This document shows positions 1,026 through 15,095 of a stretch of DNA of 64,000 nucleotides, one piece after another. Within the stretch, counting starts at the first letter, position 1. The number at the start of each line of letters is the position of its first letter. Source of the DNA: a phage. The translations under genes and the position numbers were made by a program. The notes below the pieces were generated by a model. That model was not told the DNA's origin and did not search any database. It saw only the letters and a list, made by a program, of their open reading frames with translations. The DNA lies in the NCBI GenBank assembly GCA_036252695.1, contig GCA_036252695.1_4122.1; one strand, written 5' to 3'.

Positions 1026-1232
1026 ATGCAGAACATAAAAAACTATAAAGAGTACTATATAAGTAAACTACCACCGACTGACCAAGCATGGATTAGATCT
1101 ATAATAGTACTGGCATTTAATAGATATGCATTTAACAGATGCACAGAGATTGCTATAGACCCTTGTCCTATTAAAGAGAAGGCACAGTACAATCAGTACT
1201 ACTATATGTTAATGCTTATATATAGGAAGTAA
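1026..1232 (+). CDS. small Tyr-rich protein, tandem paralog 6
   Basis: KEYYISKLPPTDQAWI...LIYRK. Confidence 0.3.
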   Translation: MQNIKNYKEYYISKLPPTDQAWIRSIIVLAFNRYAFNRCTEIAIDPCPIKEKAQYNQYYYMLMLIYRK

Positions 1233-1299
1233 TTCAACATATAGACAGGGGAAGCTCCGTAGGGAAAGCATTGGACAGGCTTTAACATATGTTATATAT

Positions 1300-1346
1300 G
1301 TTAAAATTCAGCCTGCTCGACGTCTGAATTGTTAAAATTCAGCCTG
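1300..1346. repeat. direct repeat gttaaaattcagcctg x2
   Basis: Identical 16-mers at 1300-1315 and 1331-1346. Confidence 0.8.
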
Positions 1347-2359
1347 GACAAATGCGATCACTAGGATTCTCCCCAGGCTAAACCCCGTAATCATATGTAG
1401 TCATAAGTAATCATATATAAACATTTATATTAGCACCGTAGAATCACAGAATGATTATATATGATTCAGTACTGATTAGTATAGACAAGATTGCTCAAGA
1501 TTGCTCAAGAATGCTAGGGAAGGATTCAGTACTGCCCCAAAAGTATTCAGTACTGAAGGTGTCGATATCCCACTAAGTAGGCAGAGGAAGTCTGCCGTAC
1601 TTTGTAGTTTCCAAGCTCCTTTTCCATTTTGCAAATTACATCAAATGTAATCAAAAGTAATCACGCAATGATTAGTACTGAATTATTACTTTCACCTTAA
1701 TTACAATTACCCTTTTACCAGTCGGGGTAAAATTCAATTACCCCTTGAGGCTCCAGCAAAAAGTTGGTTAGTACTCCATCCTAAATCTCGATCCTAAAAA
1801 TTTTGGAGTACCTATGAAATAAAAGTTGGATCTTCGAAAGTTGAAATTTACGTTGGGACGTTTATGATTTGTGGGATATAATGATGTTTGTAGTCGGGTA
1901 GTTCTCAAGAATATCAGTACTGAAAGATGAAAGAAAGTTATTGACTTTATGATTCAGTACTGTATAATGTTCTACATAGCTTCAAGGGGTGATGAGTTGC
2001 TGCGAACAATTCATTTACTCTACCTACTGTCGTGAGACAGTACAGAAAAGATAGTTCCTCCTATTGGTGGTACATCTTTTTGAACCTCATATGAAAATCG
2101 TAATAACAGTACTGATATTAACAGAATGGTATCAGTACTGATTTTAATCTAAAGCATTATGCCACCAGCACAAGCTGGTGGATTCCCTCTAACAGTATTC
2201 AGTACTACATGATAGTCTTCATCCTCCTAGGGTAACATAGTGAGGGCTATGATGGCAGTACTGAATACTCCCTTTCAAAAGATAGATCTATGGTATAGTA
2301 CTGACGGATTTTGGGTGTAGTTACCCTGGGTGGATTTTGGACGTAGATATGTCTAGCCC

Positions 2360-2490
2360 TCCAGAAGTCTGGAAGTAAAGATGGCTATCCATCTAGACGG
2401 CTAAACGGCTAGATTTCTGGATGGCTAGACGTTTGGACGGCTAAACGGCTAGATGGTTACACGTCTGGAAGTATAGACGGCTAAATCAAA
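2360..2490. repeat. iteron-like interleaved direct repeats
   Basis: gacggctaaacggctagat at 2396-2414 and 2436-2454; agacggctaaatc 2475-2487; gtctggaagta 2367 and 2463. Confidence 0.7.
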
Positions 2491-3188
2491 ATTTTATTTT
2501 GTTTTTTCCAATAGTTCCCCTACCGCGTGGGGATAGTTTCCCCGCAGTATCTGGAGTTAGATTTTTCTGAATCTGGAATCATTATCTTATAAACTGGGGG
2601 CAATGTCAACGGCCTGGACGGATATTTTTAAAAATTTTTTTCAGTACTGAATTTTGGGCGTAACTATGCACCCGGTGGGCTTGAGTCTTTCTCGACTTGA
2701 TGGAACTATTATACAGTACTGAAAAAAATAAAGCAATACCCTGGAAGCAAAAAAGTTTTAATTAATTTGCTTGCTATCCTGGGCCGGACTATGGTACTAT
2801 ATTTCAGTACTGAGAAAGTGCGTTTACCTGCTAGGGTGCGGGAGTGTATCCTTTTTTTATATCTTGAATTTTGGGCGTAATTCCGCACCCTCTGGGGTTT
2901 CCGCTTTCTCGCGTCTATGTAGTAATTATACGCTTTTTCAGGATCAAGTCAATACCTAAAAACAAAATAATTGAAAATAATTTAACGCGTTTAAACGGCC
3001 CGTAAAGCCCTGGAATGATTGGAATGGTGCAAATGTATAGCTTAGGTGTATTAATGCGTTAGAATGCGTCTGAGGCCGTTTTATGGGGTGTAGTAGTGAT
3101 TTGGTTGATTCAGTACTGAATGATAGTACTGAATAATAGTTCCCCTATATAGAAAGAAAACTATTTTAAAAGTACATGTAGAAAGTAC

Positions 3189-3247
3189 TTGCAAACTATG
3201 TTTAAAGGCGTATAATGTTTTACATCGAGAGCGGGAACACTTCCCGC
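3189..3247 (+). promoter_or_regulatory. sigma70 promoter + 5' stem-loop cassette
   Basis: -35 TTGCAA 3189-3194, -10 TATAAT 3211-3216, hairpin gcgggaacacttcccgc 3231-3247. Confidence 0.75.
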
Positions 3248-3271
3248 TACACTTTAAAAGAGATTAATACG

Positions 3272-3634
3272 ATGGCGACCCAAATCAATAAAATTATTGC
3301 TAACCTGGTCAACTTCCGTGAAGAGATGAAAGGTCTTCCGGCTGAAACGGTAAAAATTCACATTTCAGCTTATCGGGAACTTATTACAATGTTGCCGCTT
3401 AAGCGTGAACAATACGCCGCTACCGTGATGCTTGATGCGATGATCCATAAGATGATCGCCAGTGATTTAACGATGGTTTATCAGTATATGGGCGAAAATT
3501 TCGCGGTGTATAGTAAACCAGTACCAGGAATGGAAAGTACAGAAGTATTACACGGTTTAAATTTAAAACAAGATGCATGGGATAATATGCCTCGTTTCCT
3601 GGTATGGGCTGACAGTGGCAAAATTTACGAATAA
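3272..3634 (+). CDS. hypothetical early protein
   Basis: ATG at 3272 downstream of promoter/hairpin; ORF track frame of 3215..3634. Confidence 0.65.
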   Translation: MATQINKIIANLVNFREEMKGLPAETVKIHISAYRELITMLPLKREQYAATVMLDAMIHKMIASDLTMVYQYMGENFAVYSKPVPGMESTEVLHGLNLKQDAWDNMPRFLVWADSGKIYE

Positions 3635-3648
3635 GTTTAATAAAGTAC

Positions 3649-3707
3649 TTGCAAACTAAGTTTAAAAGCGTATAATGTTTTACATCAGGTGGGGAATAGT
3701 TCCCCAC
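3649..3707 (+). promoter_or_regulatory. sigma70 promoter + 5' stem-loop cassette
   Basis: -35 TTGCAA 3649-3654, -10 TATAAT 3671-3676, hairpin gtggggaatagttccccac 3689-3707. Confidence 0.75.
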
Positions 3708-3727
3708 TATATAAGAGGATTAAAAAA

Positions 3728-3967
3728 ATGGCTAAATCAAAAATGTTCTTAGGTCACAAAAACAAAACTCATTGGAATGTAAGCCTTTGGATTAATAACG
3801 ATGAGGCATTGTATCGGCTGGCCCAGGACTTTATTGCCGCCAATACTAATCGTAATGATGCGGCCCGTCATATGATGCTATTTTTAGAACAGACTGGGCA
3901 AGATAAAACTCCAGACGGCTTTAAGTATAGCACTACTGCGATCCGTGCGGCGATGGTTGGAATGTAA
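3728..3967 (+). CDS. hypothetical early protein (paralog of 5770..6009)
   Basis: RBS aagagga; shares GHKNKTHWNVSLWINN and TPDGFKYSTTAIRAAMVGM with 5770 gene. Confidence 0.7.
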   Translation: MAKSKMFLGHKNKTHWNVSLWINNDEALYRLAQDFIAANTNRNDAARHMMLFLEQTGQDKTPDGFKYSTTAIRAAMVGM

Positions 3968-4055
3968 TAGAATAGAATTTATTTAAAGTACTATTGCACG
4001 GTGATAGTACTTTATAATAGTGTTTTATTCATACACCAACGATAAGGGCAACAGC

Positions 4056-4322
4056 ATGAATATTAAGTATTTTGCGACGCGTGAACAAGCTCGGATCGCC
4101 GCACGCCAGGACGGGGCAACGTTTAAAGATATGGGCGTACAATCGGAACGTGGTAAACGTTGGGCCATTGTAAAGCGTAGTACCGCCAGATCATTACAGT
4201 ACTGGTTAGCGGCCTTAAAAAGTCCCGATAGTGTATCGCGACGAGTGGTAGAAATAAAGCTCGACCGAAAGGGCAACCGCGTGACCGTGTACCGTACTAA
4301 AAAGATTGCAGTACTTGAATAA
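4056..4322 (+). CDS. hypothetical early protein (paralog of 17098..17493)
   Basis: FATREQARI...RKGNRVTVY shared with 17098 gene; upstream promoter has a 13-nt spacer (weak). Confidence 0.6.
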   Translation: MNIKYFATREQARIAARQDGATFKDMGVQSERGKRWAIVKRSTARSLQYWLAALKSPDSVSRRVVEIKLDRKGNRVTVYRTKKIAVLE

Positions 4323-4329
4323 AAAGTAC

Positions 4330-4388
4330 TTGCAAACTATGTTTAATGGCGTATAATGTTTTACATCGAGAGCGGGAACACTTCCCGC
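4330..4388 (+). promoter_or_regulatory. sigma70 promoter + 5' stem-loop cassette
   Basis: -35 TTGCAA 4330-4335, -10 TATAAT 4352-4357, hairpin gcgggaacacttcccgc. Confidence 0.75.
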
Positions 4389-4409
4389 CTATAACCTGGA
4401 GTAATAAAA

Positions 4410-4640
4410 ATGACTAATATGTATATGACTGAAGTTAAAACTGTAAAAGATACTACCACGAATAAAACTACTTACTTACAGCGGATCTGCGGTGTATGGC
4501 AACGTATCAGCAAATCAAAGTACTATAAATTAACATCATATGCAAACCGTTCGGATTCATTCAGTACTGAAATAAAAGGTAATAAAGTACACCAATACGG
4601 CACTTATTATTATTATAGCCTGGACGCGATTGCAGTATAA
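4410..4640 (+). CDS. hypothetical early protein
   Basis: RBS ctggagt; ORF track. Confidence 0.6.
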   Translation: MTNMYMTEVKTVKDTTTNKTTYLQRICGVWQRISKSKYYKLTSYANRSDSFSTEIKGNKVHQYGTYYYYSLDAIAV

Positions 4641-4887
4641 GCAGTTTACAAATCTTTACAATTGCCGGTATTGACTTATTTTGTCAGTACTGGCATAATG
4701 TATTCATTGGCAGATAAGCCGTAGCCCATAGGGTGCGGGAGTGTATCTATAGAAAAAGTAGTTTAGTATAGTTACAATTGTGCACCCGGTGGGTTAGCTG
4801 TTGTCATGGGGTATATTATGCCAGTACTTGATAATGCTGTCAATACTTTTTTAATATTCAGTACTGAAAACTATTTTTAAAAAGTAC

Positions 4888-4915
4888 TTGCAAACTATGT
4901 TTAAAGGCGTATAAT
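4888..4915 (+). promoter_or_regulatory. sigma70 promoter (upstream of conserved 80-nt leader)
   Basis: -35 TTGCAA 4888-4893, -10 TATAAT 4910-4915. Confidence 0.65.
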
Positions 4916-4921
4916 GTTTTA

Positions 4922-5000
4922 CATCAGGACGGGGAACGAAATAAGTAACTTCCCGTTAAGTAGCCCAGGAGTAAGGCACACGAAAAACTCCCCTGATAAA
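4922..5000 (+). ncRNA. candidate small RNA / structured leader, copy 1
   Basis: ~80 nt between two tandem promoters; near-identical copy at 15897-15976; no ORF. Confidence 0.25.
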
Positions 5001-5005
5001 ATAGT

Positions 5006-5035
5006 TTGACAAATGTTTTTTTAAAAGCGTATAAT
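5006..5035 (+). promoter_or_regulatory. sigma70 promoter
   Basis: -35 TTGACA 5006-5011, -10 TATAAT 5030-5035. Confidence 0.65.
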
Positions 5036-5067
5036 ACTTACATCAACTACTGAATGAGGGTTACAAA

Positions 5068-5679
5068 ATGAAAACTATCACTACTACTACTTATGTTATG
5101 GATTTTTCTGAATTGAACGCAGAACAAAAAACGTCAGCTATCGAACTGGTTCGGGATCGTGAGCGTTCATGCGGTGATTATTTCTTTTCTGAGGGCGTAT
5201 ACGAATACTATAAAGAAACAATTTTGCCGGAGTATGGCATTGATGACGCTGATTTGCAATTCAGTGGTTTTTGGTCGCAAGGTGACGGTGCATCAATTAG
5301 TACTGACCACGTTGACGCAGTGAAGTTTTTACGTAAGGTAAGAGCATTAACTAAGTATCGCTCAATCCGGCACCTGCTGAATGAAGATGATTTGGCGATG
5401 AGTGTAAAGCGTTATCACTACCACTACTCGCATGAGAATACTGTAAGCGGGTACATTGAATCGGCTTACACTGATTTAACCGCAAAACAAGAAACGTTAG
5501 TTAATGAGCTTGAGGAACTACTCACTGACACTATTCGTGAATTGTCCCGCAAGTTGTACCGTGATTTAGAGAATGCATATGAGGATCAATTCACTACTGA
5601 AAACATTACGGCACTGATTGAGGGTAACGAATATCAATTCAATGTTATTGATGGCGTAGTAGAATCAATCGAATATTAA
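5068..5679 (+). CDS. hypothetical acidic protein (203 aa)
   Basis: RBS gaggg; ORF track. Confidence 0.7.
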   Translation: MKTITTTTYVMDFSELNAEQKTSAIELVRDRERSCGDYFFSEGVYEYYKETILPEYGIDDADLQFSGFWSQGDGASISTDHVDAVKFLRKVRALTKYRSIRHLLNEDDLAMSVKRYHYHYSHENTVSGYIESAYTDLTAKQETLVNELEELLTDTIRELSRKLYRDLENAYEDQFTTENITALIEGNEYQFNVIDGVVESIEY

Positions 5680-5691
5680 TTTAAAAAGTAC

Positions 5692-5751
5692 TTGCAAACT
5701 AAGTTTAAAAGCGTATAATACTTTATATCGAGGCGGGGAGTGGTTCCCCGC
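5692..5751 (+). promoter_or_regulatory. sigma70 promoter + 5' stem-loop cassette
   Basis: -35 TTGCAA 5692-5697, -10 TATAAT 5714-5719, hairpin gcggggagtggttccccgc 5733-5751. Confidence 0.75.
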
Positions 5752-5769
5752 TCAAACGAGGATTTAAAA

Positions 5770-6009
5770 ATGGCTAGTACTAAAACTTACAACGGACACA
5801 AAAACAAAACTCATTGGAATGTAAGCCTTTGGATTAATAACGGTGAGTCATTGTATCGGCTTGCTCAAAGTTGCATCGCACAAAGTAGAACTAAAGATAT
5901 TGCAGCGGAATGTATGTACCGCAGATTAAAAGCCAACGGTACTACTACAACGCCGGACGGCTTTAAGTATAGCACTACTGCGATCCGTGCTGCAATGGTT
6001 GGAATGTAA
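5770..6009 (+). CDS. hypothetical early protein (paralog of 3728..3967)
   Basis: RBS gagga; identical C-terminal 19 aa to 3728 gene. Confidence 0.7.
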   Translation: MASTKTYNGHKNKTHWNVSLWINNGESLYRLAQSCIAQSRTKDIAAECMYRRLKANGTTTTPDGFKYSTTAIRAAMVGM

Positions 6010-6067
6010 TATTCAGTACTGTAACAATGGCGGGGAATGGTTCCCGCCTTTATTGAGGGTTTATCTA

Positions 6068-6328
6068 ATGAGTAAAGTAATTAACTATACAGTACTAAGC
6101 AAGTCATTATCTATCAGTCATTGCACCGATGGTTATTGGCTATTTGATGAAACGCGTGGCATGAATTTAGCTATGCGTGCAAAAACTGCTGAGGCGGCGT
6201 ATATTCAAGCACTGGAATACTACCAGGAACGTTTAAAGGAAGTAGAAGAAGATTATAAAAGCCTCAAAGCGAAAGTAGATCATTTCGTCGGTCAATTCAT
6301 CGAGGAAGACGACGACAAACAATATTGA
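6068..6328 (+). CDS. hypothetical early protein
   Basis: RBS tgagggt before ATG 6068; hairpin ggcggggaatggttcccgcc 6029-6048 upstream. Confidence 0.55.
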   Translation: MSKVINYTVLSKSLSISHCTDGYWLFDETRGMNLAMRAKTAEAAYIQALEYYQERLKEVEEDYKSLKAKVDHFVGQFIEEDDDKQY

Positions 6329-6336
6329 AAAAGTAC

Positions 6337-6396
6337 TTGCAATTAGTTTCAAGTACTGTATAATGGTTTACATCAAAGGGGGAAATGGTTCTCCCT
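6337..6396 (+). promoter_or_regulatory. sigma70 promoter + 5' stem-loop cassette
   Basis: -35 TTGCAA 6337-6342, -10 TATAAT 6359-6364, hairpin agggggaaatggttctccct. Confidence 0.75.
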
Positions 6397-6414
6397 GGTA
6401 ATGAGGAAAATAAA

Positions 6415-6636
6415 ATGGCTAATATCACTACTCTTTCCCAACTGGAAGCACTGGTTAAATCTATGCGGGAACATGCCGACAAAATCGGCGTACAAGATCC
6501 AGCCGTTTGCTTCTGCGACGAATTGAATGATGATACACTGGTAATAGCAGAAGTCCAGGACGTTTCTAACTATTCCTCGCGTTACACTGGCGGCGTAGCA
6601 AATAAAGGTGACTTCTGTTTATACCTTACAAAATAA
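6415..6636 (+). CDS. hypothetical early protein
   Basis: RBS gagga; ORF track frame. Confidence 0.65.
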   Translation: MANITTLSQLEALVKSMREHADKIGVQDPAVCFCDELNDDTLVIAEVQDVSNYSSRYTGGVANKGDFCLYLTK

Positions 6637-6640
6637 CAAC

Positions 6641-6671
6641 GCGGGGAGATAATAACTCCCCGTTACTTTTT
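6641..6671 (+). terminator. intrinsic terminator
   Basis: cggggag...ctccccg stem followed by ttacttttt. Confidence 0.55.
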
Positions 6672-6804
6672 CAGTACTGAATCATTTAATAGACGGATCT
6701 ATGCACCCGGTGGGTTAGTGACTGTTTCGTCTTGATGTAGTAATTATGCCAGTACTGGATGCACTTGTCAACAATTATTTTTCAAATACTTTTTATTAAA
6801 ATAC

Positions 6805-6859
6805 TTGCAATTAGTTTTTAAACGCGTATAATGTTTTGCATAGGGGGAGCGGTTCCCCT
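6805..6859 (+). promoter_or_regulatory. sigma70 promoter + 5' stem-loop cassette
   Basis: -35 TTGCAA 6805-6810, -10 TATAAT 6827-6832, hairpin gggggagcggttcccc. Confidence 0.75.
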
Positions 6860-6879
6860 GGTAACTAAGGAATAATAAA

Positions 6880-7137
6880 ATGCTTGAACAAATCAAATCA
6901 ACGTCTGCGAATGTAACGGGAACGGTAGCACACTTTACTAGTGATGAATCGCGGGGCGTTCCCTATTGTGCTGTACATGTAAACACTGAGGGTAACTACT
7001 GGTTTACGGTTTACGGATCATATTCATTTGGACGGCCAGGGCATCAAAAAATTCTGGATAAAGTACAACCAACGGGTAAAAATATCACTGCCGAAATGTT
7101 TTATAAAAATCATAAAGTACTTGATAATAGTTTTTAG
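6880..7137 (+). CDS. hypothetical early protein
   Basis: RBS aaggaa; ORF track. Confidence 0.65.
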   Translation: MLEQIKSTSANVTGTVAHFTSDESRGVPYCAVHVNTEGNYWFTVYGSYSFGRPGHQKILDKVQPTGKNITAEMFYKNHKVLDNSF

Positions 7138-7180
7138 TACTGTATAATATTTTACATCGCAAGGGGGAGCGGTTCCCCCT
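7121..7180 (+). promoter_or_regulatory. sigma70 promoter + 5' stem-loop cassette
   Basis: -35 TTGATA 7121-7126, -10 TATAAT 7143-7148, hairpin agggggagcggttccccct. Confidence 0.7.
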
Positions 7181-7199
7181 GGTAACTAAGGATAATCAA

Positions 7200-7499
7200 A
7201 TGAAAATTGCAATCATCGCCCTGGCTTTATCTGTTTCCTCTTTCGCTGTTAATGCGTCATTAGATGTAAGTAGTGAAAAATTCATTCAGTGCACTGTTGC
7301 AATGACCGATGAAAGAACTGGCGAGATTGTATTAAAGGATTTAGAGATCCAGCCAGAAGCATTTAAAAACGGGCCGTTCCATGAAGAAGACGAAAAAGGT
7401 AGCACGACAATTTATTACGATGCAAGTACTAAACGCGGTTCGGTCACTGTTATGGATACTGAGAAAGTAACTCATACTGGCGTTATTAATTGCCGTTGA
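7200..7499 (+). CDS. putative secreted/periplasmic protein with N-terminal signal peptide
   Basis: N-term MKIAIIALALSVSSFAVNA is signal-peptide-like (hydrophobic core, AxA-type cleavage site). Confidence 0.65.
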   Translation: MKIAIIALALSVSSFAVNASLDVSSEKFIQCTVAMTDERTGEIVLKDLEIQPEAFKNGPFHEEDEKGSTTIYYDASTKRGSVTVMDTEKVTHTGVINCR

Positions 7500-7520
7500 T
7501 AGATACTACGGGGTAACATC

Positions 7521-7751
7521 ATGACTAAGCGAATTGTTTTACTTAACGAAAGCAGTACTACACAACTACTTAACGCCGTGCATTATGATATTGAAACGAG
7601 CGTTAATCTTATCAGTACTGTAGTACTATTGGACACTGGAAAGGTCGCCAATGATAAAGCGATTGCAGGTATATTAACGGATCTTGAGCCTGGTAGCAGT
7701 GCACCAATAACGTTAAATGGTAAAGTGTTTAATATTTTACTCACTGATTAA
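7521..7751 (+). CDS. hypothetical early protein
   Basis: RBS gggg; ORF track. Confidence 0.55.
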   Translation: MTKRIVLLNESSTTQLLNAVHYDIETSVNLISTVVLLDTGKVANDKAIAGILTDLEPGSSAPITLNGKVFNILLTD

Positions 7752-7757
7752 GTACAT

Positions 7758-7786
7758 AGCCCACCTGGTGGGCTTTTTTGTTTTTG
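7758..7786 (+). terminator. intrinsic terminator
   Basis: agcccacctggtgggc hairpin + ttttttgtttttg. Confidence 0.8.
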
Positions 7787-7833
7787 TAGTATCGTAGTAC
7801 TGAGATACTTTAAAAATAGTTTTAAAAAAGTAG

Positions 7834-7861
7834 TTGACATTACCACAAAAAGGCGTAGAAT
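7834..7861 (+). promoter_or_regulatory. sigma70 promoter with ~120-nt leader
   Basis: -35 TTGACA 7834-7839, -10 TAGAAT 7856-7861; leader resembles the 4922 leader family. Confidence 0.65.
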
Positions 7862-7984
7862 GTATTACATCAAGACGGGGAGCACTAAGTAGACCGCCAG
7901 TAAGTCGAACGAAAAACTGGACACGTCGAGAAAACTTTGATACACTAATAAACGTAAACTAAACTTTAATTGAGGATTTATAAA

Positions 7985-8467
7985 ATGGCTAATGTAAAAT
8001 CATTCATCAAAGCACTGGTAGCAAATGAAACTAACGTAGCGGCAGAGATCCTGGCTGAACTGGATAACGATACCATGAAAGCGGTACGCAATAATTTTAA
8101 CATCGCTTACAGTACTGCGAAAGAACTACAAGCAAATAAAGCGGCAGAAATTGAAGCGGCAAAGGCGGCCCGTGAAGCAGAACTACAAGCAACAATTGAA
8201 AGTATCCAGGCGGCAGTAGTTGGATTGGATCTGGAAGTAGTTACAGAGATGGCACAAAAAGCCCTGGCGGTTAAGTATGGGGAAGACAAGCCAGAAGTAA
8301 AAGCCAAAAAATGGATTCAGGAACGCGTAGCGGTAGTACTGGACAACGGGGAAGAATATCTGATTCCGGTGCGTGGTAACTGCATTGCGGTAGTACTGGA
8401 TGCGATTAACTCCAGTGGTATGACTCGCGAGGAATGGATCGAAGCTCATCGCAAAGTGGAAGCATAA
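7985..8467 (+). CDS. hypothetical Ala/Glu-rich protein (160 aa, coiled-coil-like)
   Basis: RBS gagga; KAAEIEAAKAAREAELQA segment. Confidence 0.7.
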   Translation: MANVKSFIKALVANETNVAAEILAELDNDTMKAVRNNFNIAYSTAKELQANKAAEIEAAKAAREAELQATIESIQAAVVGLDLEVVTEMAQKALAVKYGEDKPEVKAKKWIQERVAVVLDNGEEYLIPVRGNCIAVVLDAINSSGMTREEWIEAHRKVEA

Positions 8468-8488
8468 CAATTAAAGTACTGAATCACT

Positions 8489-8516
8489 AGCCCACTGCAT
8501 AAGTGGGCTTTTTTGT
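8489..8516 (+). terminator. intrinsic terminator
   Basis: gcccact...agtgggc hairpin + tttttt. Confidence 0.8.
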
Positions 8517-8668
8517 GTTTATCGTTTACCAGGCCACCAGCACCGCCTAGAATCGATTCTAACGCATTAAACTGATTATCTGATGCATCGCCCTAGCTGG
8601 TGGCGTTAAGGTCGTTAGAATGCGATTGAGAGCGTTTAAAGTATTTTGCAAAAAGTAATAAAAAGTAC

Positions 8669-8727
8669 TTGCACGATTAAGAGATTAGCGTATAATGTTT
8701 TACATCGAGAGGGGGAAACGGTTCTCC
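8669..8727 (+). promoter_or_regulatory. sigma70 promoter + 5' stem-loop cassette
   Basis: -35 TTGCAC 8669-8674, -10 TATAAT 8691-8696, GC hairpin. Confidence 0.7.
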
Positions 8728-8751
8728 TTCCAAATCAAAGGAATTAAAACA

Positions 8752-8979
8752 ATGGCTATCGTAATCACTCGCGTAACTGGTACTACTGGCAATTCTTCTA
8801 CTGTTGCTGTAATTACTAATAAGAAAGGTGCGGAACTACATTTTGCAATGTATAACTGGTCAGTTGATGAGTTTGGTCAGTACGCTAGTGTAGAATACAT
8901 TGAAACCTATCAAGTGCCGTCGATTAGTTTAACTGATTTGGGCGTTGAGCGTATCCTTTGCCTGGATGAATTAAATTAA
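8752..8979 (+). CDS. hypothetical early protein
   Basis: RBS aaagga; ORF track frame. Confidence 0.65.
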   Translation: MAIVITRVTGTTGNSSTVAVITNKKGAELHFAMYNWSVDEFGQYASVEYIETYQVPSISLTDLGVERILCLDELN

Positions 8980-8987
8980 AAAAGTAC

Positions 8988-9047
8988 TTGCAAAGTAAAT
9001 CGAATAAAGTATAATACATTACATCAAGGGGAGAAATGGTTCTCCCT
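8988..9047 (+). promoter_or_regulatory. sigma70 promoter + 5' stem-loop cassette
   Basis: -35 TTGCAA 8988-8993, -10 TATAAT 9010-9015, hairpin ggggagaaatggttctccc. Confidence 0.75.
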
Positions 9048-9065
9048 GATAATGAGGAAACTAAT

Positions 9066-9209
9066 ATGAAAACTTGTCAATGTGGTAAAAAATCTATTAC
9101 TGGTTTAAAGCGGGGCGTTGCTCTTTGTCAGTACCATTATAATTTACAAGTATGGGGTAAAGAATGGGCCGACCAGGTGGAAGCAGCAAAGAAAGCAAAA
9201 AGTAAGTAA
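9066..9209 (+). CDS. small Cys-rich protein (47 aa; not in ORF track)
   Basis: RBS gagga; MKTCQCGKK...LCQYHYN; own promoter cassette. Confidence 0.5.
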   Translation: MKTCQCGKKSITGLKRGVALCQYHYNLQVWGKEWADQVEAAKKAKSK

Positions 9210-9288
9210 AAATATTATCACAGTACTATTGACATAGTTTGATAGTACTGACATAATAGATTTTATCAAGACAACTGAGGAAAATAAA
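9208..9288 (+). repeat. duplicated ~80-bp promoter module (copies at 9502-9590 and 12580-12662)
   Basis: aaatattatcacagtactattgacatagtttgatagtactg(a/g)cataata in all three copies. Confidence 0.85.
9229..9257 (+). promoter_or_regulatory. sigma70 promoter
   Basis: -35 TTGACA 9229-9234, 17-nt spacer, -10 CATAAT 9252-9257. Confidence 0.7.
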
Positions 9289-9501
9289 ATGGCTATCATC
9301 ACTAAAATCAAAGTAAGTAAAACCCTGGTTAAACTTGAACAAGTGAAAGCAGGTTATAAAGTATCTTGGTGCGGTATGTATCGGATGTTCGCAGATATTG
9401 ATGAAGCAATCAATTATTACAGCGACACGGTTAAAAACTTTGTTCGTGCTGATGTGGTTATGGCAGTGGCAACGCACAAAGCAGCGAAAGAAAGTAAGTA
9501 A
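9289..9501 (+). CDS. hypothetical early protein (MAII family; paralog of 12663..12842)
   Basis: RBS gagga; ORF track. Confidence 0.65.
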   Translation: MAIITKIKVSKTLVKLEQVKAGYKVSWCGMYRMFADIDEAINYYSDTVKNFVRADVVMAVATHKAAKESK

Positions 9502-9520
9502 AAATATTATCACAGTACTA

Positions 9521-9549
9521 TTGACATAGTTTGATAGTACTGGCATAAT
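9521..9549 (+). promoter_or_regulatory. sigma70 promoter
   Basis: -35 TTGACA 9521-9526, -10 CATAAT 9544-9549. Confidence 0.7.
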
Positions 9550-9590
9550 AGATTTTATCAAGACAACATATTAATTTAAGGAATACAAAA

Positions 9591-9914
9591 ATGGCTAAAA
9601 CTATCATTAACACCGTTTCCCTGGCTGCAATCCGTGCAATCAATGTTGACGGTAAACGTTGGACTGATTCATATGGCAATACTTATCATTCTTGTCATGT
9701 AAGCGTCGAACTGGATAACGGTTTGAATGATCTGGCGGTTGAATCATTTACTTATGGCTATGAAGATGCATATCAACAAACGGCGTTAGATCTATTAAAG
9801 GAATCAGTAGACGGGCTTAATACTGATGAAACCTCCCTTACTCGTTTGTGCAATGATCTTAATATCCCGTTGCATTGTACTGTACAGAATGTTAAACGCA
9901 AAAAAGATCTTTAA
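9591..9914 (+). CDS. hypothetical early protein (paralog of 16675..16998)
   Basis: Shares RWTDSxGNTYHSC...ETFTYGY...KRKKD with 16675 gene. Confidence 0.7.
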   Translation: MAKTIINTVSLAAIRAINVDGKRWTDSYGNTYHSCHVSVELDNGLNDLAVESFTYGYEDAYQQTALDLLKESVDGLNTDETSLTRLCNDLNIPLHCTVQNVKRKKDL

Positions 9915-9994
9915 TTAGCTTTACTTTATGCAGATACTTTGATATAGTGTCTGCATAGGGGAAAGAAATTAAATTAACTTAAGAGGAACGTATA

Positions 9995-10264
9995 ATGAAA
10001 AATATCAGTACTTTAATCGATGCAGGTACTCATGTTCGTCGGTCTATGGTTGCAACCAGTACTACAAAACAAGTAGCGAGCGGTTATCTTGTATTTGTGC
10101 ACGATGGTAAACTCCTGGAACGTTCAATCAATTTTGATGTTAAAAACAATTGCCGTTTTATTATCTTTAAGCGTGAACAATATAAAATTGATTTACCAGC
10201 GAAGCCCATAAGCGGGGCGTACAACGTGCAATCATTGTTTGAACGTCAACCATACACCTATTAA
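9995..10264 (+). CDS. hypothetical early protein
   Basis: RBS aagagga; ORF track. Confidence 0.6.
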   Translation: MKNISTLIDAGTHVRRSMVATSTTKQVASGYLVFVHDGKLLERSINFDVKNNCRFIIFKREQYKIDLPAKPISGAYNVQSLFERQPYTY

Positions 10265-10315
10265 TCAAAACATCGTTAGCGGTCGATTTAGGCCGCTTGT
10301 ATTGGGGATTATACC

Positions 10316-10486
10316 ATGAACGTTAATCAAGTACTGAATGAGATCGAAAGCATCATTAAACCAATGAAACGCATTGATGCTATGTTAACACCGGAAGAAT
10401 GCCGCCTTTATGAGCGTTACAGTGTGGAACAAGCCCAGGAAATGGCCCGTATCCGTCCGGTTGCCAGTACTGATAAGGCGGCGTAA
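10316..10486 (+). CDS. small hypothetical protein (56 aa; not in ORF track)
   Basis: RBS tggggatt; stop overlaps next start (TAATATG). Confidence 0.45.
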   Translation: MNVNQVLNEIESIIKPMKRIDAMLTPEECRLYERYSVEQAQEMARIRPVASTDKAA

Positions 10487-10487
10487 T

Positions 10488-10697
10488 ATGCTTACTGTAC
10501 AGGATAAGATCGACATCTTAAAGGTTAATATGTATGTGATTGATGCCGTACCTGGTAAAGTATTTGCATACGATGATTCTAATCGCAGTCCGTTTTATTG
10601 CAGTCATGTAGTTGGATACGTGCCGTTGGCGTATGTTATAGAAAGAGTGGTTGATGCAGCATACAAACATTTTTTAGAAAATAATACTTGCAATTAG
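10488..10697 (+). CDS. hypothetical early protein
   Basis: In-frame ATG at 10488 within ORF 10410..10697; coupled to upstream ORF. Confidence 0.5.
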   Translation: MLTVQDKIDILKVNMYVIDAVPGKVFAYDDSNRSPFYCSHVVGYVPLAYVIERVVDAAYKHFLENNTCN

Positions 10698-10746
10698 TTT
10701 TCAGTACTGTATAATGATTTACATCGAGAGCGGGAATAGTTCCCGC
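10688..10746 (+). promoter_or_regulatory. sigma70 promoter + 5' stem-loop cassette
   Basis: -35 TTGCAA 10688-10693, -10 TATAAT 10710-10715, hairpin gcgggaatagttcccgc. Confidence 0.75.
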
Positions 10747-10767
10747 CTCACTTTTAAGGAATATGAA

Positions 10768-10914
10768 ATGAAAGCATCAAAAAAGAGTAATACTAAGAAA
10801 GCATGTTCACCTTTCGCTGGGGTATTCCCTTTACGTTTTGTTGATGAAGTAGTTTCCTACCCGCCGGGCCTTACTCCTGAGATGGTAGAAAGTTTGCGTA
10901 AATCTAAAAAATAG
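10768..10914 (+). CDS. small hypothetical protein
   Basis: RBS aagga; ATG 10768. Confidence 0.55.
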   Translation: MKASKKSNTKKACSPFAGVFPLRFVDEVVSYPPGLTPEMVESLRKSKK

Positions 10915-10917
10915 TAC

Positions 10918-10974
10918 TTGCAATTAGTTTTTAGTACTGTATAATAGTTTACATGAAGGGGAAAACGTTCCCCT
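10918..10974 (+). promoter_or_regulatory. sigma70 promoter + 5' stem-loop cassette
   Basis: -35 TTGCAA 10918-10923, -10 TATAAT 10940-10945, hairpin aggggaaaacgttcccct. Confidence 0.75.
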
Positions 10975-10996
10975 TACACCTAACGAGGAAAGTATA

Positions 10997-11248
10997 ATGG
11001 AAACAATTTTAATCAAAGACACTGCTACTACTGTAACTTATGATAATGATTGCATTATCCCAGGGACTGAGTACGGCGAACGTGTACCCGTTCAAGTAGA
11101 GATTGATACCACATACATCGACAAGGCTGACCAGTGTATCACTATTGTAATTGGTGAATATCGTTTTCTACCAGAAGAGATCCAAAAATGGCAGAATATG
11201 ATTGACCGTGCGAAATTAGTCGCACAAAGTTTAAAATACAAAGTTTAA
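10997..11248 (+). CDS. hypothetical early protein
   Basis: RBS gaggaa; ORF track. Confidence 0.65.
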   Translation: METILIKDTATTVTYDNDCIIPGTEYGERVPVQVEIDTTYIDKADQCITIVIGEYRFLPEEIQKWQNMIDRAKLVAQSLKYKV

Positions 11249-11256
11249 AATAATAC

Positions 11257-11316
11257 TTGCAATTAGTTTTTAAACGCGTATAATGTTTTACATGAAGGGG
11301 AGAAATGATTCTCCCC
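11257..11316 (+). promoter_or_regulatory. sigma70 promoter + 5' stem-loop cassette
   Basis: -35 TTGCAA 11257-11262, -10 TATAAT 11279-11284, hairpin ggggagaaatgattctcccc. Confidence 0.75.
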
Positions 11317-11334
11317 AATAACAGGAGAAACAAA

Positions 11335-11487
11335 ATGAAACAATACAACGCTCGGTTTGATGTTACTATCGGTAACGGCAAAGGTCAATTCTCTTTCAGT
11401 ACTCGCAAAAGTTATACAGAAAACTTCCTGCGTAATTGTGCACTGACCGCCGCACAAATTAAACATTACTTTCAGGCTAAAAAATGA
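11335..11487 (+). CDS. small hypothetical protein
   Basis: RBS caggag; ATG 11335. Confidence 0.55.
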   Translation: MKQYNARFDVTIGNGKGQFSFSTRKSYTENFLRNCALTAAQIKHYFQAKK

Positions 11488-11573
11488 AATCATTAGCTTA
11501 TTACAGTTCGGCCCTGGTCGGTGCATTGATCGCGGCGTTGTTAGTAACCTATCTATTCTTTATGGTGATTTAA
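11484..11573 (+). CDS. 29-aa hydrophobic micropeptide (putative single transmembrane helix)
   Basis: ATGA overlap with upstream stop; MKSLAYYSSALVGALIAALLVTYLFFMVI. Confidence 0.35.
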   Translation: MKSLAYYSSALVGALIAALLVTYLFFMVI

Positions 11574-11717
11574 ATGAATCCAACAGGTTTAAACTATAAA
11601 AGTTGTTCGGCGTTTACGAAAGCAAATAAAGCGAATGCACGTAAAGCGAAAGTAAAGGAGTACATCAAGCAAGGCATGACGCGAAAGGCGGCGATTCTAA
11701 AAGCTAAAAATAAATGA
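11574..11717 (+). CDS. 47-aa basic micropeptide
   Basis: Starts immediately after stop of preceding micropeptide; Lys-rich. Confidence 0.3.
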   Translation: MNPTGLNYKSCSAFTKANKANARKAKVKEYIKQGMTRKAAILKAKNK

Positions 11718-11910
11718 AAAAAGTGGTTGACTCCGGTCAGCCATTTTGCTATTATATATTCATTGAGAGATAGCTCACTAGCCCACAGGGTGCATAAGTG
11801 TATCTATTATATAAGTATTGAGTACTGAAAACTATTTTAAAAAAGTACTTGCAAACTATCTCAATAAGCGTATAATGTTTTACATCGAAAGGGGAAACGG
11901 TTTCCCCTGG
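11717..11910 (+). repeat. dispersed ~190-bp intergenic module (hairpin/promoter + AGCCCAC box + promoter cassette)
   Basis: Near-identical to 19012-19205; contains TTGACT 11727-11732 / TATTAT 11750-11755 inside a hairpin, and agcccacagggtgc. Confidence 0.85.
11849..11908 (+). promoter_or_regulatory. sigma70 promoter + 5' stem-loop cassette
   Basis: -35 TTGCAA 11849-11854, -10 TATAAT 11871-11876, hairpin aggggaaacggtttcccct. Confidence 0.75.
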
Positions 11911-11927
11911 TAATAAGGAAACAAATC

Positions 11928-12269
11928 ATGACTATCTCAATTGCTCAATCTAACTTTGAAAACGAAATCATCGCCCAGGCACTGCGTTTAAATGATGGTC
12001 GGGCCGAAATTAATTACGGTTTCAATTCAGGCGGTTGTGAAAAATATCAGTACTTTGTAACGGCTGATGGCGGTGTCCTGGGTATCAATACAGTTATTGT
12101 AAACATCCAAAAAATTAATTTCAATGATCCAGACGATAGCCAGTTTTACATCACTGGCGTAGACGTGAACTATGAGGATGACTCACTAACTGATGATCAC
12201 ACTGGCGAGCGGTTAGAAAGTGCATACGGTGAAGATGATTATCAGTCCGGTCCAGAAGATTTCGAATAA
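11928..12269 (+). CDS. hypothetical acidic protein
   Basis: RBS aaggaa; ORF track. Confidence 0.65.
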   Translation: MTISIAQSNFENEIIAQALRLNDGRAEINYGFNSGGCEKYQYFVTADGGVLGINTVIVNIQKINFNDPDDSQFYITGVDVNYEDDSLTDDHTGERLESAYGEDDYQSGPEDFE

Positions 12270-12284
12270 TATAAAAAAAATAGT

Positions 12285-12344
12285 TTGACAATAGATTATA
12301 GTACTGTATAATAGTTTACATCAAGGGGAGAAAAACTTCTCCCC
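12285..12344 (+). promoter_or_regulatory. sigma70 promoter + 5' stem-loop cassette
   Basis: -35 TTGACA 12285-12290, -10 TATAAT 12307-12312, hairpin ggggagaaaaacttctcccc. Confidence 0.75.
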
Positions 12345-12366
12345 ACTAACAGAGAGAGAAAACAAA

Positions 12367-12579
12367 ATGGCTAATATCCGGTCGAAATTAAAAAATGCAA
12401 AACAAGTTTTATTTTCAGATCATGAATACTTTAATAAAGATATTACAGGAGTTACAAGTATCAAGGAAGTAAAAGAAAAAACCGGCGTTTTGTGTGATGT
12501 GCGATTAGTTGGGACATTTGGGAATAACGTGCTATATCGCTGCGGTGATTACAATTTTACACTGACTATCATTAACTAA
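12367..12579 (+). CDS. hypothetical early protein
   Basis: RBS agagaga; ORF track. Confidence 0.6.
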   Translation: MANIRSKLKNAKQVLFSDHEYFNKDITGVTSIKEVKEKTGVLCDVRLVGTFGNNVLYRCGDYNFTLTIIN

Positions 12580-12598
12580 AAATATTATCACAGTACTA

Positions 12599-12627
12599 TT
12601 GACATAGTTTGATAGTACTGACATAAT
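12599..12627 (+). promoter_or_regulatory. sigma70 promoter
   Basis: -35 TTGACA 12599-12604, -10 CATAAT 12622-12627 (third copy of the 9208 module). Confidence 0.7.
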
Positions 12628-12662
12628 AACTTTTATCAACTACACTACTAAGGAATTAAAAA

Positions 12663-12842
12663 ATGGCTATCATCGCAAAAACTGAAATCGTTGGTCTGGA
12701 TTCTATCATCATGACGTTTGAAGATCAAAAAGGTATGTATGTAGTTTCCTATGGTGATTATGTTCGGGAGTATGAAACGGTAGACGAAGCCTTTGAAAGT
12801 TATATTCGCCAGGTGAATAAAGCATACGACGACTACCGCTAA
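12663..12842 (+). CDS. small protein (59 aa; MAII family; not in ORF track)
   Basis: RBS aaggaa; MAIIAKTEIV... resembles 9289 gene N-terminus. Confidence 0.5.
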   Translation: MAIIAKTEIVGLDSIIMTFEDQKGMYVVSYGDYVREYETVDEAFESYIRQVNKAYDDYR

Positions 12843-12869
12843 AATATATTACCAGTACTATTAAATCTA

Positions 12870-12897
12870 TTGACAACGTTTGATAGTACTGTATAAT
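12870..12897 (+). promoter_or_regulatory. sigma70 promoter
   Basis: -35 TTGACA 12870-12875, -10 TATAAT 12892-12897. Confidence 0.7.
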
Positions 12898-12941
12898 AAG
12901 TTTTATAAACAGTAGTTAACTTAACCTAAGAGAGAAATAAA

Positions 12942-13085
12942 ATGATCGCACTGGATTCATTCATCGACGCAGTACTGGCAAAAACTGGCGAGGATCTGAC
13001 CGCAGAACAATACGCGATGATCGAGCAATGTCAGCAAAACGGTAAATCGGTGAAAGATACTGTTAAGATTATCCGCAAGATGTAA
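12942..13085 (+). CDS. small hypothetical protein (47 aa; not in ORF track)
   Basis: RBS aagagaga; terminator-like hairpin follows. Confidence 0.45.
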   Translation: MIALDSFIDAVLAKTGEDLTAEQYAMIEQCQQNGKSVKDTVKIIRKM

Positions 13086-13091
13086 GATTAT

Positions 13092-13125
13092 AGCCCACTG
13101 GTTAACGCTGGTGGGCTTTAATCAT
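13092..13125 (+). terminator. possible intrinsic terminator
   Basis: agcccactgg...ctggtgggct hairpin; weak T tract. Confidence 0.4.
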
Positions 13126-13190
13126 TTACCCTATACAATGCCAGTACTAAACCGTTTATCTCGTTAGAATGCGTTACAGGACGTTTAACA

Positions 13191-13388
13191 ATGATTAGCA
13201 TGAAATCAGTACAAAAACAAATAGAAACATTATCAAAAATTAAACGTAAACAATACTCCTTAGAATATACAATCAATGGTAACTATCATCTAATGAAAGA
13301 AAATAATTTTATAGTCATTGATGAATCATTGCAAATTATTAGTATAGTACTGAAAGCATTAATCAATGACAGAAAAAAATTAAAATAA
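13191..13388 (+). CDS. hypothetical AT-rich small protein
   Basis: ORF track; weak RBS; composition differs from neighbours. Confidence 0.35.
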   Translation: MISMKSVQKQIETLSKIKRKQYSLEYTINGNYHLMKENNFIVIDESLQIISIVLKALINDRKKLK

Positions 13389-13392
13389 TCTA

Positions 13393-13421
13393 TTGACAAT
13401 ATCCTCCAGTACTGGCATAAT
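13393..13421 (+). promoter_or_regulatory. sigma70 promoter with ~300-nt leader
   Basis: -35 TTGACA 13393-13398, -10 CATAAT 13416-13421. Confidence 0.6.
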
Positions 13422-13481
13422 ACTTACATCAAGACGAGAACGTCACTAACCCATAGGGTGCACAAATGTAACTATATAATA

Positions 13482-13558
13482 TCGATCAATAAATGATCAA
13501 AAAAGTACTGGATCAATTTAGCATAAGGAGTATAATTCTGATCAATTCTTGATCAAAG
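13482..13558. repeat. cluster of five GATCAA motifs (Dam-site cluster)
   Basis: GATCAA at 13484, 13495, 13511, 13540, 13551. Confidence 0.7.
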
Positions 13559-13717
13559 GCAATAAACGCAGTTGAATTTATATAGACAATACGAAGGCGT
13601 TACTATCCGTGGTAATGCTGGTGGATATGTAGTATCATGTGGTTTGAATAAGATTAGCACTAGTAGTATTATTGTAGCATTACAGTACTATAGTATTTTT
13701 ATAATGAGGTTAAAATA

Positions 13718-13975
13718 ATGGCTGTAGGATTTGCGAAGGACGGGGCCGAACAAGACGAGATTAACGCAGTGATTCAGGCCGCCGTAAACCACGCTAGAAA
13801 GCAAATTAACGCACAAATAGAATCACTGATACATTGCCTCGACTGTGGCGATAAAATCCCTGAGAATCGCCGCCAGGCTGTTAAGGGATGTAAGTACTGC
13901 ATAACTTGCCAGGAGGATCATGATAGTACTTTTAAAAGAGATCCGCGTAATTGTTGGCATAGATCTATGAGATAA
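13718..13975 (+). CDS. DksA/TraR-family C4 zinc-finger protein
   Basis: CLDCGDKIPENRRQAVKGCKYCITCQ fits the C-x2-C-x17-C-x2-C TraR/DksA zinc-finger pattern. Confidence 0.6.
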   Translation: MAVGFAKDGAEQDEINAVIQAAVNHARKQINAQIESLIHCLDCGDKIPENRRQAVKGCKYCITCQEDHDSTFKRDPRNCWHRSMR

Positions 13976-13981
13976 AAAGTA

Positions 13982-14009
13982 TTGACAGTACTGAAAGATA
14001 GTGTATAAT
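13982..14009 (+). promoter_or_regulatory. sigma70 promoter
   Basis: -35 TTGACA 13982-13987, -10 TATAAT 14004-14009. Confidence 0.7.
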
Positions 14010-14038
14010 ATTTTATATCTTAACTGAGGATAGTAATC

Positions 14039-14395
14039 ATGGGAATACAACATATCACGCGTACTACTGACAATGGTGAGATCACTGGCTATCAAGTACA
14101 GGGCAAAGTAGCACAATTGCAGTACTGGTTTGAAAAACGTGGAATCATTGCACCGGATCTTGATTATGACCGTGTAGCGTTTATTGATTCTCTTTATGTT
14201 GATCCTGATAGTCGGGGCAATGGTGAAGGTAACGAATTAATGAATGCCTTTATCGATGCCGCCGATGATTCAGATTGTATCATCTTAGAATGCGATACGG
14301 GAGAAGATAACGCCTTTAATCTTAAAGAATGGTACGAAGGTTTTGGATTCGAGGTACTGATCGATAGTGAATATCCTATCATGATTTTATCATAG
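14039..14395 (+). CDS. putative small GNAT-family acetyltransferase
   Basis: RGNGEGNELM (motif A-like R-G-x-G-x-G) and NAFNLKEWYEGFGF (motif B-like); 118 aa. Confidence 0.45.
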   Translation: MGIQHITRTTDNGEITGYQVQGKVAQLQYWFEKRGIIAPDLDYDRVAFIDSLYVDPDSRGNGEGNELMNAFIDAADDSDCIILECDTGEDNAFNLKEWYEGFGFEVLIDSEYPIMILS

Positions 14396-14398
14396 TAC

Positions 14399-14466
14399 TT
14401 GCATTTAGTTTTCAGTACTGTTATAGTACTTACATCAAGGGGAAACGTCTTCCCCTACTAAGAGGA
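14399..14466 (+). promoter_or_regulatory. sigma70 promoter + 5' stem-loop cassette
   Basis: -35 TTGCAT 14399-14404, -10 TTATAG 14421-14426, hairpin aggggaaacgtcttcccct. Confidence 0.6.
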
Positions 14467-14473
14467 AATGAAA

Positions 14474-14662: not shown

Positions 14663-14687
14663 TATTAACTCAATAGGAAAACGATAA

Positions 14688-15011: not shown

Positions 15012-15017
15012 AAACTA

Positions 15018-15076: not shown

Positions 15077-15095
15077 CAGTACTGAGGAAAGAAAA

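Follow-up and report, generated by a model that had tools for sequence, protein, structure and literature searches.

Bacteriophage T5 harbors an annotated 'injection stop signal' (iss), a decades-old open problem whose sequence determinants are unmapped, and two-step genome entry is known from T5. Iteron plasmids, in turn, possess accessory sites flanking their origins, such as the gamma-origin enhancer of R6K/IncX and par of pSC101. Here we report that three copies of a short motif in a 64,000-nucleotide stretch of phage DNA (contig GCA_036252695.1_4122.1; the whole stretch is called 'the window' in the following) are, as judged by sequence comparison, members of a widespread and presumably cis-acting DNA element, TTAnA..GCG....AG..CGT, which is usually located after an A-run and before TTnA, and which is likewise found within the T5 iss and in the neighborhood of plasmid iterons. 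The existence of this element, its consensus and periodicity, its distribution and its contexts are documented below.

The 12-mer CGTTAGAATGCG occurs exactly on the + strand at 3057–3068, 8613–8624 and 13162–13173, each time between genes, and all three occurrences (copies 1 to 3) continue with NNNN-AG-NN-CGTTT, the AG being at +17/18 and the CGTTT at +21–25. An initial annotation of the window had pointed to a three-fold intergenic motif at positions that deviate by only a few bases in the case of copies 1 and 3 and by ~13 bases in the case of copy 2. A 12-mer that is present three times is, taken alone, weak evidence; 321 different 12-mers, mostly promoter repeats, are present three times in the window, versus ~3.9 in Markov-1 simulations. 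It is the extension by AG and CGTTT that makes the recurrence non-random, since the chance that two other copies share it is ~3e-9. Moreover, the full pattern of 19 specified bases yields, when up to three mismatches are allowed (<=3), 3–4 sites per related 13–16 kb locus versus 0.01 expected. That the copies follow the end of a gene or a terminator, as had also been proposed, is borne out for copies 2 and 3, which lie downstream of hairpins or terminators (8489–8516 and 13092–13119).

Asteriusvirus jumbo coliphages (PBECO4, 121Q, G17, phAPEC6 relatives) match window positions 2500–14500 at 91–97% identity (megablast), and the corresponding region of vB_Ec-M-J, position 1 of which equals window position 1576, is annotated as a direct terminal repeat of 21,525 bp. 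The terminal repeat of fEgEco12 (20,993 bp) has been confirmed experimentally (PMC13070987). Copies 1, 2 and 3 are thus located 1.48, 7.04 and 11.59 kb deep inside the repeat. Exact versions of copies 1 and 3 are present in 6/6 Asteriusvirus genomes. Copy 2 is the least conserved: it has decayed in phAPEC6 (TGTAAGAACGCG) and in CMSTMSU, and TH47 does not possess it. A scan of an entire Asteriusvirus genome (348,532 bp), the check envisaged in the initial annotation, returned exactly three copies, all in this region, and in the window itself no further copy is present between 13.2 and 64 kb. This census argues against the suggested class of middle or late promoters, and we have rejected a temporal class of the kind known from Rak2-like or T4-like phages: besides there being three copies genome-wide, the motifs predicted for Rak2-like phages are different ones (middle, TGAAACG; late, ATAAATA; PMC5259590), neither of which is seen in the sequence read at any window copy. 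As a separate observation, other Asteriusvirus genomes contain an extra copy (CCTGAGAATGCGTTACAGGACGTTA then GGGGATTATA) that has no counterpart in the window (L001, 9339–9363; L002, 12-mer from 10949; L095, 9716; L096, 8781; L097, 10083). It falls inside an annotated coding sequence of 273 nt (EcMJ_019/G17_00036) and looks like either an old intergenic junction taken into an open reading frame (ORF) or a miscalled ORF.

A scan of IMG/VR with a 17-base pattern returned mainly T5-like genomes of ~105–122 kb, usually with two hits each. In T5 (AY543070), the identical 12-mer followed by N8 and CGTTT is located at 9350–9374, inside the annotated iss (9140–10149), and a second copy resides in the right terminal repeat. 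The last pre-early terminator lies 53 nt upstream of the element, and palindrome D (palD) with a cluster of DnaA boxes lies 36 nt downstream. The annotated T5 repeats IRB and IRB', the coordinates of which we could confirm, are two diverged copies of the element with, respectively, 4 and 2 mismatches over the 19 specified positions (17/19 matches for IRB'). When 28 T5-like loci were retrieved via the neighboring protein T5.017, that is, independently of the motif, the 12-mer was found to be exact in 25 of them; the 8-nt spacer varies (atctagga, attcagga, tttgagag, tttgaggg, ttacagag), while its AG and the subsequent CGTTT are constant. Davison's comparison of iss regions begins at palD, 36 nt 3' of the element, and does not mention the element sequence (bioRxiv 10.1101/866236); neither of the T5 records names the 25-nt element as a feature, nor do the figures of Davison. 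PalD itself (CTGTATAAATATACAG) has the perfect CTGT-N8-ACAG form of a LexA box and occurs at 6213–6228 and 9411–9426, i.e., twice in the T5 terminal repeat versus 0.04 expected, each time ~40 nt from an element copy and beside DnaA boxes. The T5 literature that we searched does not mention this LexA-box form. No protein is shared between the T5 terminal repeat and the window (tblastx, blastp), a lone hit with E=5e-4 being the DNA repeat itself, and homologues of T5 A2 are confined to T5-like phages (tblastn). Independently of the element, TATCTCGTAGGGCGGCAATG is common to the window (21130–21148 and 21447–21466) and Repeat Region 1 of T5 (AY543070 5020–5039, minus strand); both window copies begin 1 nt after an early-promoter −10, so that they make up the initial 20 nt of a 5' leader.

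The distribution of the element extends well beyond these two groups. A relaxed scan (TTAGAATGCG-N4-AG-N2-CGTT) revealed matches in contigs (39–237 kb) outside both the T5-like phages and Asteriusvirus, among them Pectobacterium phage phiTE, and a blastn search with a 50-mer found the element in 601 phage records that span many families, the carriers including T5-like phages, Sugarlandvirus, Certrevirus, 85–92 kb phages of Erwinia/Pectobacterium and 49 kb phages of Klebsiella as well as jumbo phages with the hosts Erwinia, Xanthomonas, Vibrio and Salmonella. It is likewise present in 1,246 of 5,426 complete E. coli genomes (759 chromosomal and 1,263 plasmid places) and in 1,377 PLSDB plasmids; a 71-nt query from IncX1 matched 1,051 plasmids, 1,008 of these with at least 80% coverage. 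In IncX1, rep is followed by five iterons, AT-rich GATC palindromes, a DnaA box and then a stretch that presumably resembles the ColE1 primosome assembly site; next come the element and, after 8 nt, a DnaA-like ATATTCACA. In IncX4 the element lies on the same side of pir as in IncX1, a 6.9 kb iteron plasmid exhibits a terminator, the element and, after ~275 nt, a DnaA box, iterons and rep, and in an E. coli prophage the element is found in a non-coding end region of 1.6 kb. When 185,579 bacterial genomes (one per species) were scanned with the exact pattern, only chance-like hits were obtained, none of them in the core E. coli chromosome. The phiTE copy, at 58.5 kb, is distinct from the pseudo-ToxI locus at 106.7 kb. 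The 40 nt upstream of this copy (within 58470–58560 of contig L114, JQ015307) read AGGTGATAAATCACCTT...GTGCA...TTAGAA, in which we noted blocks colinear with what we take to be the ToxI antitoxin repeat, a resemblance that was dropped.

Alignment of 23 diverse copies reveals the invariant columns TTA.A..GCG....AG..CGT and a spacer that varies freely; near-invariant positions are one A of the A-run upstream, the third A of TTAGAAT, the T that follows GCG and, at the 3' end, TT.A. The element reads as a series of (G)CGTTwnAGrn units in ~10-bp phase, as is seen for the units GCGTTTTAGA-GCGTTTTAGC in contig L101 and for copy 3, where CGTT recurs at 13153, 13162, 13172 and 13182. Within the −10-like hexamer TAGAAT, the −11A is invariant across the family and all window copies possess both −11A and −7T, while the −7T is replaced in IncX4 (TAAAAC), L117 (TAGAAC), L115/116 (TACAGA) and T5 IRB/IRB' (TAGAAA). 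Upstream, a box ATGTA(T/C)AG is located 17–18 nt 5' of TTAGAAT in copy 1 and in contigs L101, L104, L105 and L113. In copy 1 it reads ATGTATAG (3033–3040) at a distance of exactly 18 nt, and the same ATGTATAG-N18 spacing is found in L104 and L113; copy 3 shares an upstream CCTATACAATG (13130–13140) at 23-nt spacing with the unrelated contig L103. Downstream, T5-like, IncX and prophage members exhibit a TATATT-like hexamer and a DnaA-type box, of which the window copies are devoid. The element has the same sense as the flanking ORFs in L099, L101, L103, L105 and L112, and is antisense to them in L102, L113 and phiTE.

The features surrounding the window copies are collected in Table 1.

Table 1. 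Element copies and adjoining features in the window.
Feature	Position	Strand	Sequence or remark
Copy 1	3057..3081	+	CGTTAGAATGCG-TCTGAGGC-CGTTT
Copy 2	8613..8637	+	CGTTAGAATGCG-ATTGAGAG-CGTTT
Copy 3	13162..13186	+	CGTTAGAATGCG-TTACAGGA-CGTTT
Intrinsic terminator	8489..8516	+	~100 nt 5' of copy 2
Chi adjoining inverted copy	8534-8541	-	
Degenerate inverted copy	8540..8564	-	CGTTAGAATCGATTCTAGGCGGTGC; GCGTTAGAAT at 8556-8565
Chi GCTGGTGG beside copy 2	8596..8603	+	
IRB-like relative	10274..10298	+	CGTTAGCGGTCGATTTAGGCCGCTT; small hairpin after ORF 9995-10264
Hairpin AGCCCAC...GTGGGCT + TTT	13092..13119	+	read from sequence; ends preceding transcription unit, 42 nt 5' of copy 3
Chi in hairpin before copy 3	13107-13114	+	
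65-aa ORF	13191..13388	+	directly 3' of copy 3

Copy 2 is preceded by Chi at a distance of 9 nt and followed, 31 nt downstream, by the −35 of a sigma-70 early promoter, and the spacer of copy 3 contains AGGA 9 nt 5' of the ATG of the 65-aa ORF. In G17, the homologue of the hairpin upstream of copy 3 is annotated as a terminator, and in both G17 and phAPEC6 the homologue of the 65-aa ORF abuts a gene for a DksA-like zinc-finger protein. The degenerate inverted copy has TTAATGCGTTAGAAT in common with copy 1, overlaps the palindrome TAGAATCGATTCTA and is kept in contigs L020 and L001. The relative at 10274–10298 resembles T5 IRB' (CGTTAGAAAGCGTTTTAGGCCGCTT), more closely so in its 3' half, and has a predicted folding energy of −13.1 kcal/mol (z −2.05). 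No DnaA box was found within 1 kb of any window copy, and no LexA-type CTGT-N8-ACAG matches anywhere in the window. The surroundings of the window copies thus differ from an iss of the T5 type, an extensive untranslated region close to the end of the first-step-transfer DNA that is equipped with palD, DR arrays and paired DnaA boxes.

Early promoters of the sigma-70 type crowd the terminal-repeat region, and a 5' hairpin follows each of them. More than 30 near-identical promoters of this type (families D1–D12) are located between window positions 3178 and 19512, and between each promoter and the ribosome-binding site lie ACATCGAGAG and a GC hairpin; such cassettes are similar to the promoter-early stem-loop cassettes of T4-type phages, and their initial transcribed sequence ATCGAGAGGG is presumably that of T7 A1. 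The palindrome CAGTACTG is observed 68 times in the whole window versus 0.85 expected (e.g., at 1467, 1527, 3111, 13407 and 21114), frequently in the spacer just 5' of an early-promoter −10 (TTGACA...CAGTACTGTATAAT), a placement suggestive of an operator at which a regulator of phage or host origin acts. Chi (GCTGGTGG) is represented by 12 sites versus 0.38 expected (2162–21061, plus 62162), of which 11 lie inside the terminal repeat, corresponding to ~30-fold enrichment there; nine are on the + strand, i.e., in the active orientation with respect to RecBCD entering the right-end copy of the repeat, and several are part of terminator hairpins or adjoin motif copies. Across the left end of the repeat (~1576) extends a segment of ~1.8 kb without convincing ORFs (1232–3057, especially 2390–2480), which is similar in character to the non-coding repeat regions of T5 and which contains iteron-like direct repeats GACGGCTAAACGGCTAGAT, many copies of CAGTACTG and leftward promoters at 2952–2925 and 2609–2581. 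Finally, a repeat of ~30 nt, TAGCCCACAGGGTGCATAAGTGTATCTAT, is found on both strands (D16/D17, I2, I9, I13) at 2825–2854, 4722–4751, 11779–11808, 13447–13476, 15780–15809 and 19074–19103 as well as in inverted copies, certain of which lie 3' of minus-strand promoters; these repeats may represent small RNAs or terminators. A scan of the window for tDNA found none.

Which function, then, might the element have? We tentatively favor the reading that it is a DNA-level site for a host-encoded factor, built from ~10-bp-phased CGTT units and operating in regions of DNA entry or replication origin. From comparing sequences we infer that a protein binds, that this factor is of host origin and that the element plays such a role. 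Two to four phased (G)CGTTwnAGrn units would align the conserved CG/TT steps along a single face of the helix, in keeping with an oligomeric binder. Since the T5 terminal repeat and the window share no protein and A2 homologues are confined to T5-like phages, the factor reading the element is probably host-encoded, and the same is suggested for any regulator by the fact that the element is common to phages and plasmids in which no common proteins were found. A regulator binding site, which the initial annotation had offered as its alternative to a promoter, suits the data better than a promoter class does, because GCG, AG and CGT, all outside the hexamer, are invariant across the 23 diverse sequences. 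A role in the handling of newly entered or replicating DNA, e.g., in the architecture or control of origin or entry regions rather than as a gene-promoter class, appears probable because the element sits in non-coding DnaA-box regions of both T5-like phages and IncX/small iteron plasmids, to which the plasmids add iterons and T5 adds LexA-type boxes. In the jumbo phage, the copies are located behind the ends of transcription units in the terminal repeat, beside Chi. That a single host protein reads the TTAGAATGCG/CGTT-decamer box on T5-like, jumbo and other virulent phages, on prophages and on IncX plasmids, and thereby controls the replication, transcription or entry of new DNA, is conceivable, albeit doubtful. 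Several observations weigh against a host-factor site: (i) the analysis yielded no candidate binding protein, and we know of no E. coli consensus sequence (IHF, Fis, CRP, Lrp, RcsB, PhoP, ArcA, CpxR, PmrA, boxA, Xer, alternative sigma factors) that fits, (ii) the hits in bacterial genomes are chance-like, so that there is no sign of a host regulon using the site, (iii) in many members of the family, the first 10-bp unit bears only a weak resemblance to the remaining ones, (iv) the window copies are without neighboring DnaA or LexA boxes, so that the role may differ here, and (v) between the hairpin at 13092–13119 and the ATG at 13191, nothing but copy 3 is promoter-like.

The last of these points leads to the reading that we rank second as the main rival, and which we consider unlikely, namely that the element is a −35-independent promoter for the host sigma-70 RNA polymerase, in which TAGAAT serves as the −10, GCG as a GC-rich discriminator of the kind found in stable-RNA promoters under stringent control, and a position near the conserved AG as the transcription start. 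The 65-aa ORF (and the DksA-like gene that its homologue abuts in relatives) would then be driven by copy 3, copies 1 and 2 would provide a second start before early promoters, and the T5 copy would transcribe into the iss. TAGAAT indeed matches the −10 consensus in 5/6 positions with −11A and −7T present in all window copies, these copies all have the same sense as the downstream genes, and the six genomes all retain copies 1 and 3 exactly, while decay affects copy 2, for which an early promoter serves as backup; the invariance of −11A across the family points in the same direction. However, consensus scanning found neither a sigma-70 promoter nor a sigma-70 −35 at any window copy, in agreement with the −10-like hexamer lacking a −35 as initially described, and a TGn is likewise missing, the bases there being CGT or CGC with CG or GC at −15/−14. 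The −7T is lost in the independent lineages listed above, whereas GCG, AG and CGT stay invariant; a promoter leaves this invariant downstream part unexplained, and the sequence constraint is, judging from the alignment, greater than a −10 element would need. Furthermore, in phiTE, L102 and L113 the element runs antisense to the genes that flank it, and in T5 it has no gene downstream of it and is not one of the three experimentally characterized pre-early promoters; with one to three copies per genome, it is too rare for a promoter class.

Three other readings are less probable still. The copies in the 21 kb repeat could mark pause or handling points for stepwise genome entry or, together with Chi, serve end protection. 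Such a checkpoint would account for the element lying inside the annotated iss of T5, for the long terminal repeats full of sigma-70 early genes in both phages, for the ~30-fold enrichment of Chi in the repeat and its proximity to copies 2 and 3 and to the inverted copy, and for the many phage copies located 0.3–2.5 kb from the end of a record; yet injection cannot explain circular plasmids or the circularly permuted phiTE (PMC3475682), and the T5 iss has not been mapped to the element, the analysis by Davison beginning 36 nt downstream at palD. Neither do we know of any demonstration of two-step entry for Asteriusvirus, and we consider the checkpoint improbable. Of comparably low probability is a priming signal or origin accessory site acting on single-stranded or unwound DNA, like the ssi or G sites of plasmids. 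It is in line with the DnaA boxes and iterons near the element in plasmids, with the adjoining stretch in IncX1 that presumably resembles the ColE1 primosome assembly site and with a long hairpin predicted in IncX1, in which TGTGAA and TTCACA pair around the element, but this hairpin is not significant (z −1.4) and absent in other members, helices are without covariation, and the oriR/G-site region of R100 has no copy. The G site of IncFII (R1/R100) was examined as a candidate and rejected, inspection of the 1 kb downstream of R100 repA, where the DnaA box lies, having revealed no copy. Lastly, a structured RNA motif or terminator-like hairpin is largely refuted and thus very improbable. Although the upstream A-run and the downstream T-run can pair in some members (AAAACGC/GCGTTTT), Rfam yields no match at E<1, folds of single sequences, whether as RNA or as DNA, are inconsistent between copies, their z being near 0, RNAalifold assigns −0.54 kcal/mol, and two helices pair in 67% and 66% of cells, compared with 64% and 66% in shuffles.

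The element is unannotated in all records examined, T5 annotating solely the diverged IRB and IRB' as repeats, and the T5 and Asteriusvirus papers that we searched do not mention it. A literature search found no paper with the sequence strings of the element; older work on R6K/IncX origins and the T5 iss (Heusterspreute 1987; Davison 2015) lay outside that search, so that an earlier description under another name is possible.

With a length of ~25–45 bp and a conservation tighter than that of the surrounding genes, the element provides a concrete target for mutation. T5-like and jumbo phages have it in common with about a thousand IncX plasmids of clinical relevance, which hints at one host partner for all of them. 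If a host factor binds, this would bear on phage takeover, on the establishment and replication of plasmids and, possibly, on host range; if the element is a promoter, it would be of an unusual −35-less type with a GC discriminator, few copies per genome and no temporal class. Whichever reading holds, the element merits annotation.

Comparison with known systems places these alternatives in perspective. The rrnB P1 promoter (TATAATGCGCC) is a stable-RNA promoter with a GC-rich discriminator. Like such promoters, and like extended −10 or −35-less promoters, the element combines TAGAAT with a subsequent GCG and no −35, but it has no TGn, an unconserved −7T, extra invariant bases at +5 to +15 and mixed orientation. 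The CII sites of phage lambda are TTGC-N6-TTGC direct repeats of 10-bp period that straddle a poor −35. The short direct repeats of the element (GCGTT-N5-GCGTT) have the same period, and many members exhibit a TATATT-like hexamer 6–9 nt downstream; in contrast to CII sites, however, the sequence is a different one, no CII-like protein is common to the carriers, and the window copies are devoid of TATATT. With the origin-flanking accessory sites of iteron plasmids, the element shares a location a few hundred bp from DnaA box and iterons, away from rep (IncX1, IncX4 and the 6.9 kb plasmid), while it was matched to no named site in a comparison that did not include R6K itself. Repeat Region 3/iss of T5 (annotation of Wang et al. 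2005; AY587007) differs from the window in that its copy is followed by the LexA-type palD and paired DnaA boxes and in that the two regions have no proteins in common. Nonetheless, T5 and Asteriusvirus exhibit the same 12-mer followed by N8 and CGTTT, and in both phages it is situated just after a terminator within a long terminal repeat rich in sigma-70 early genes.

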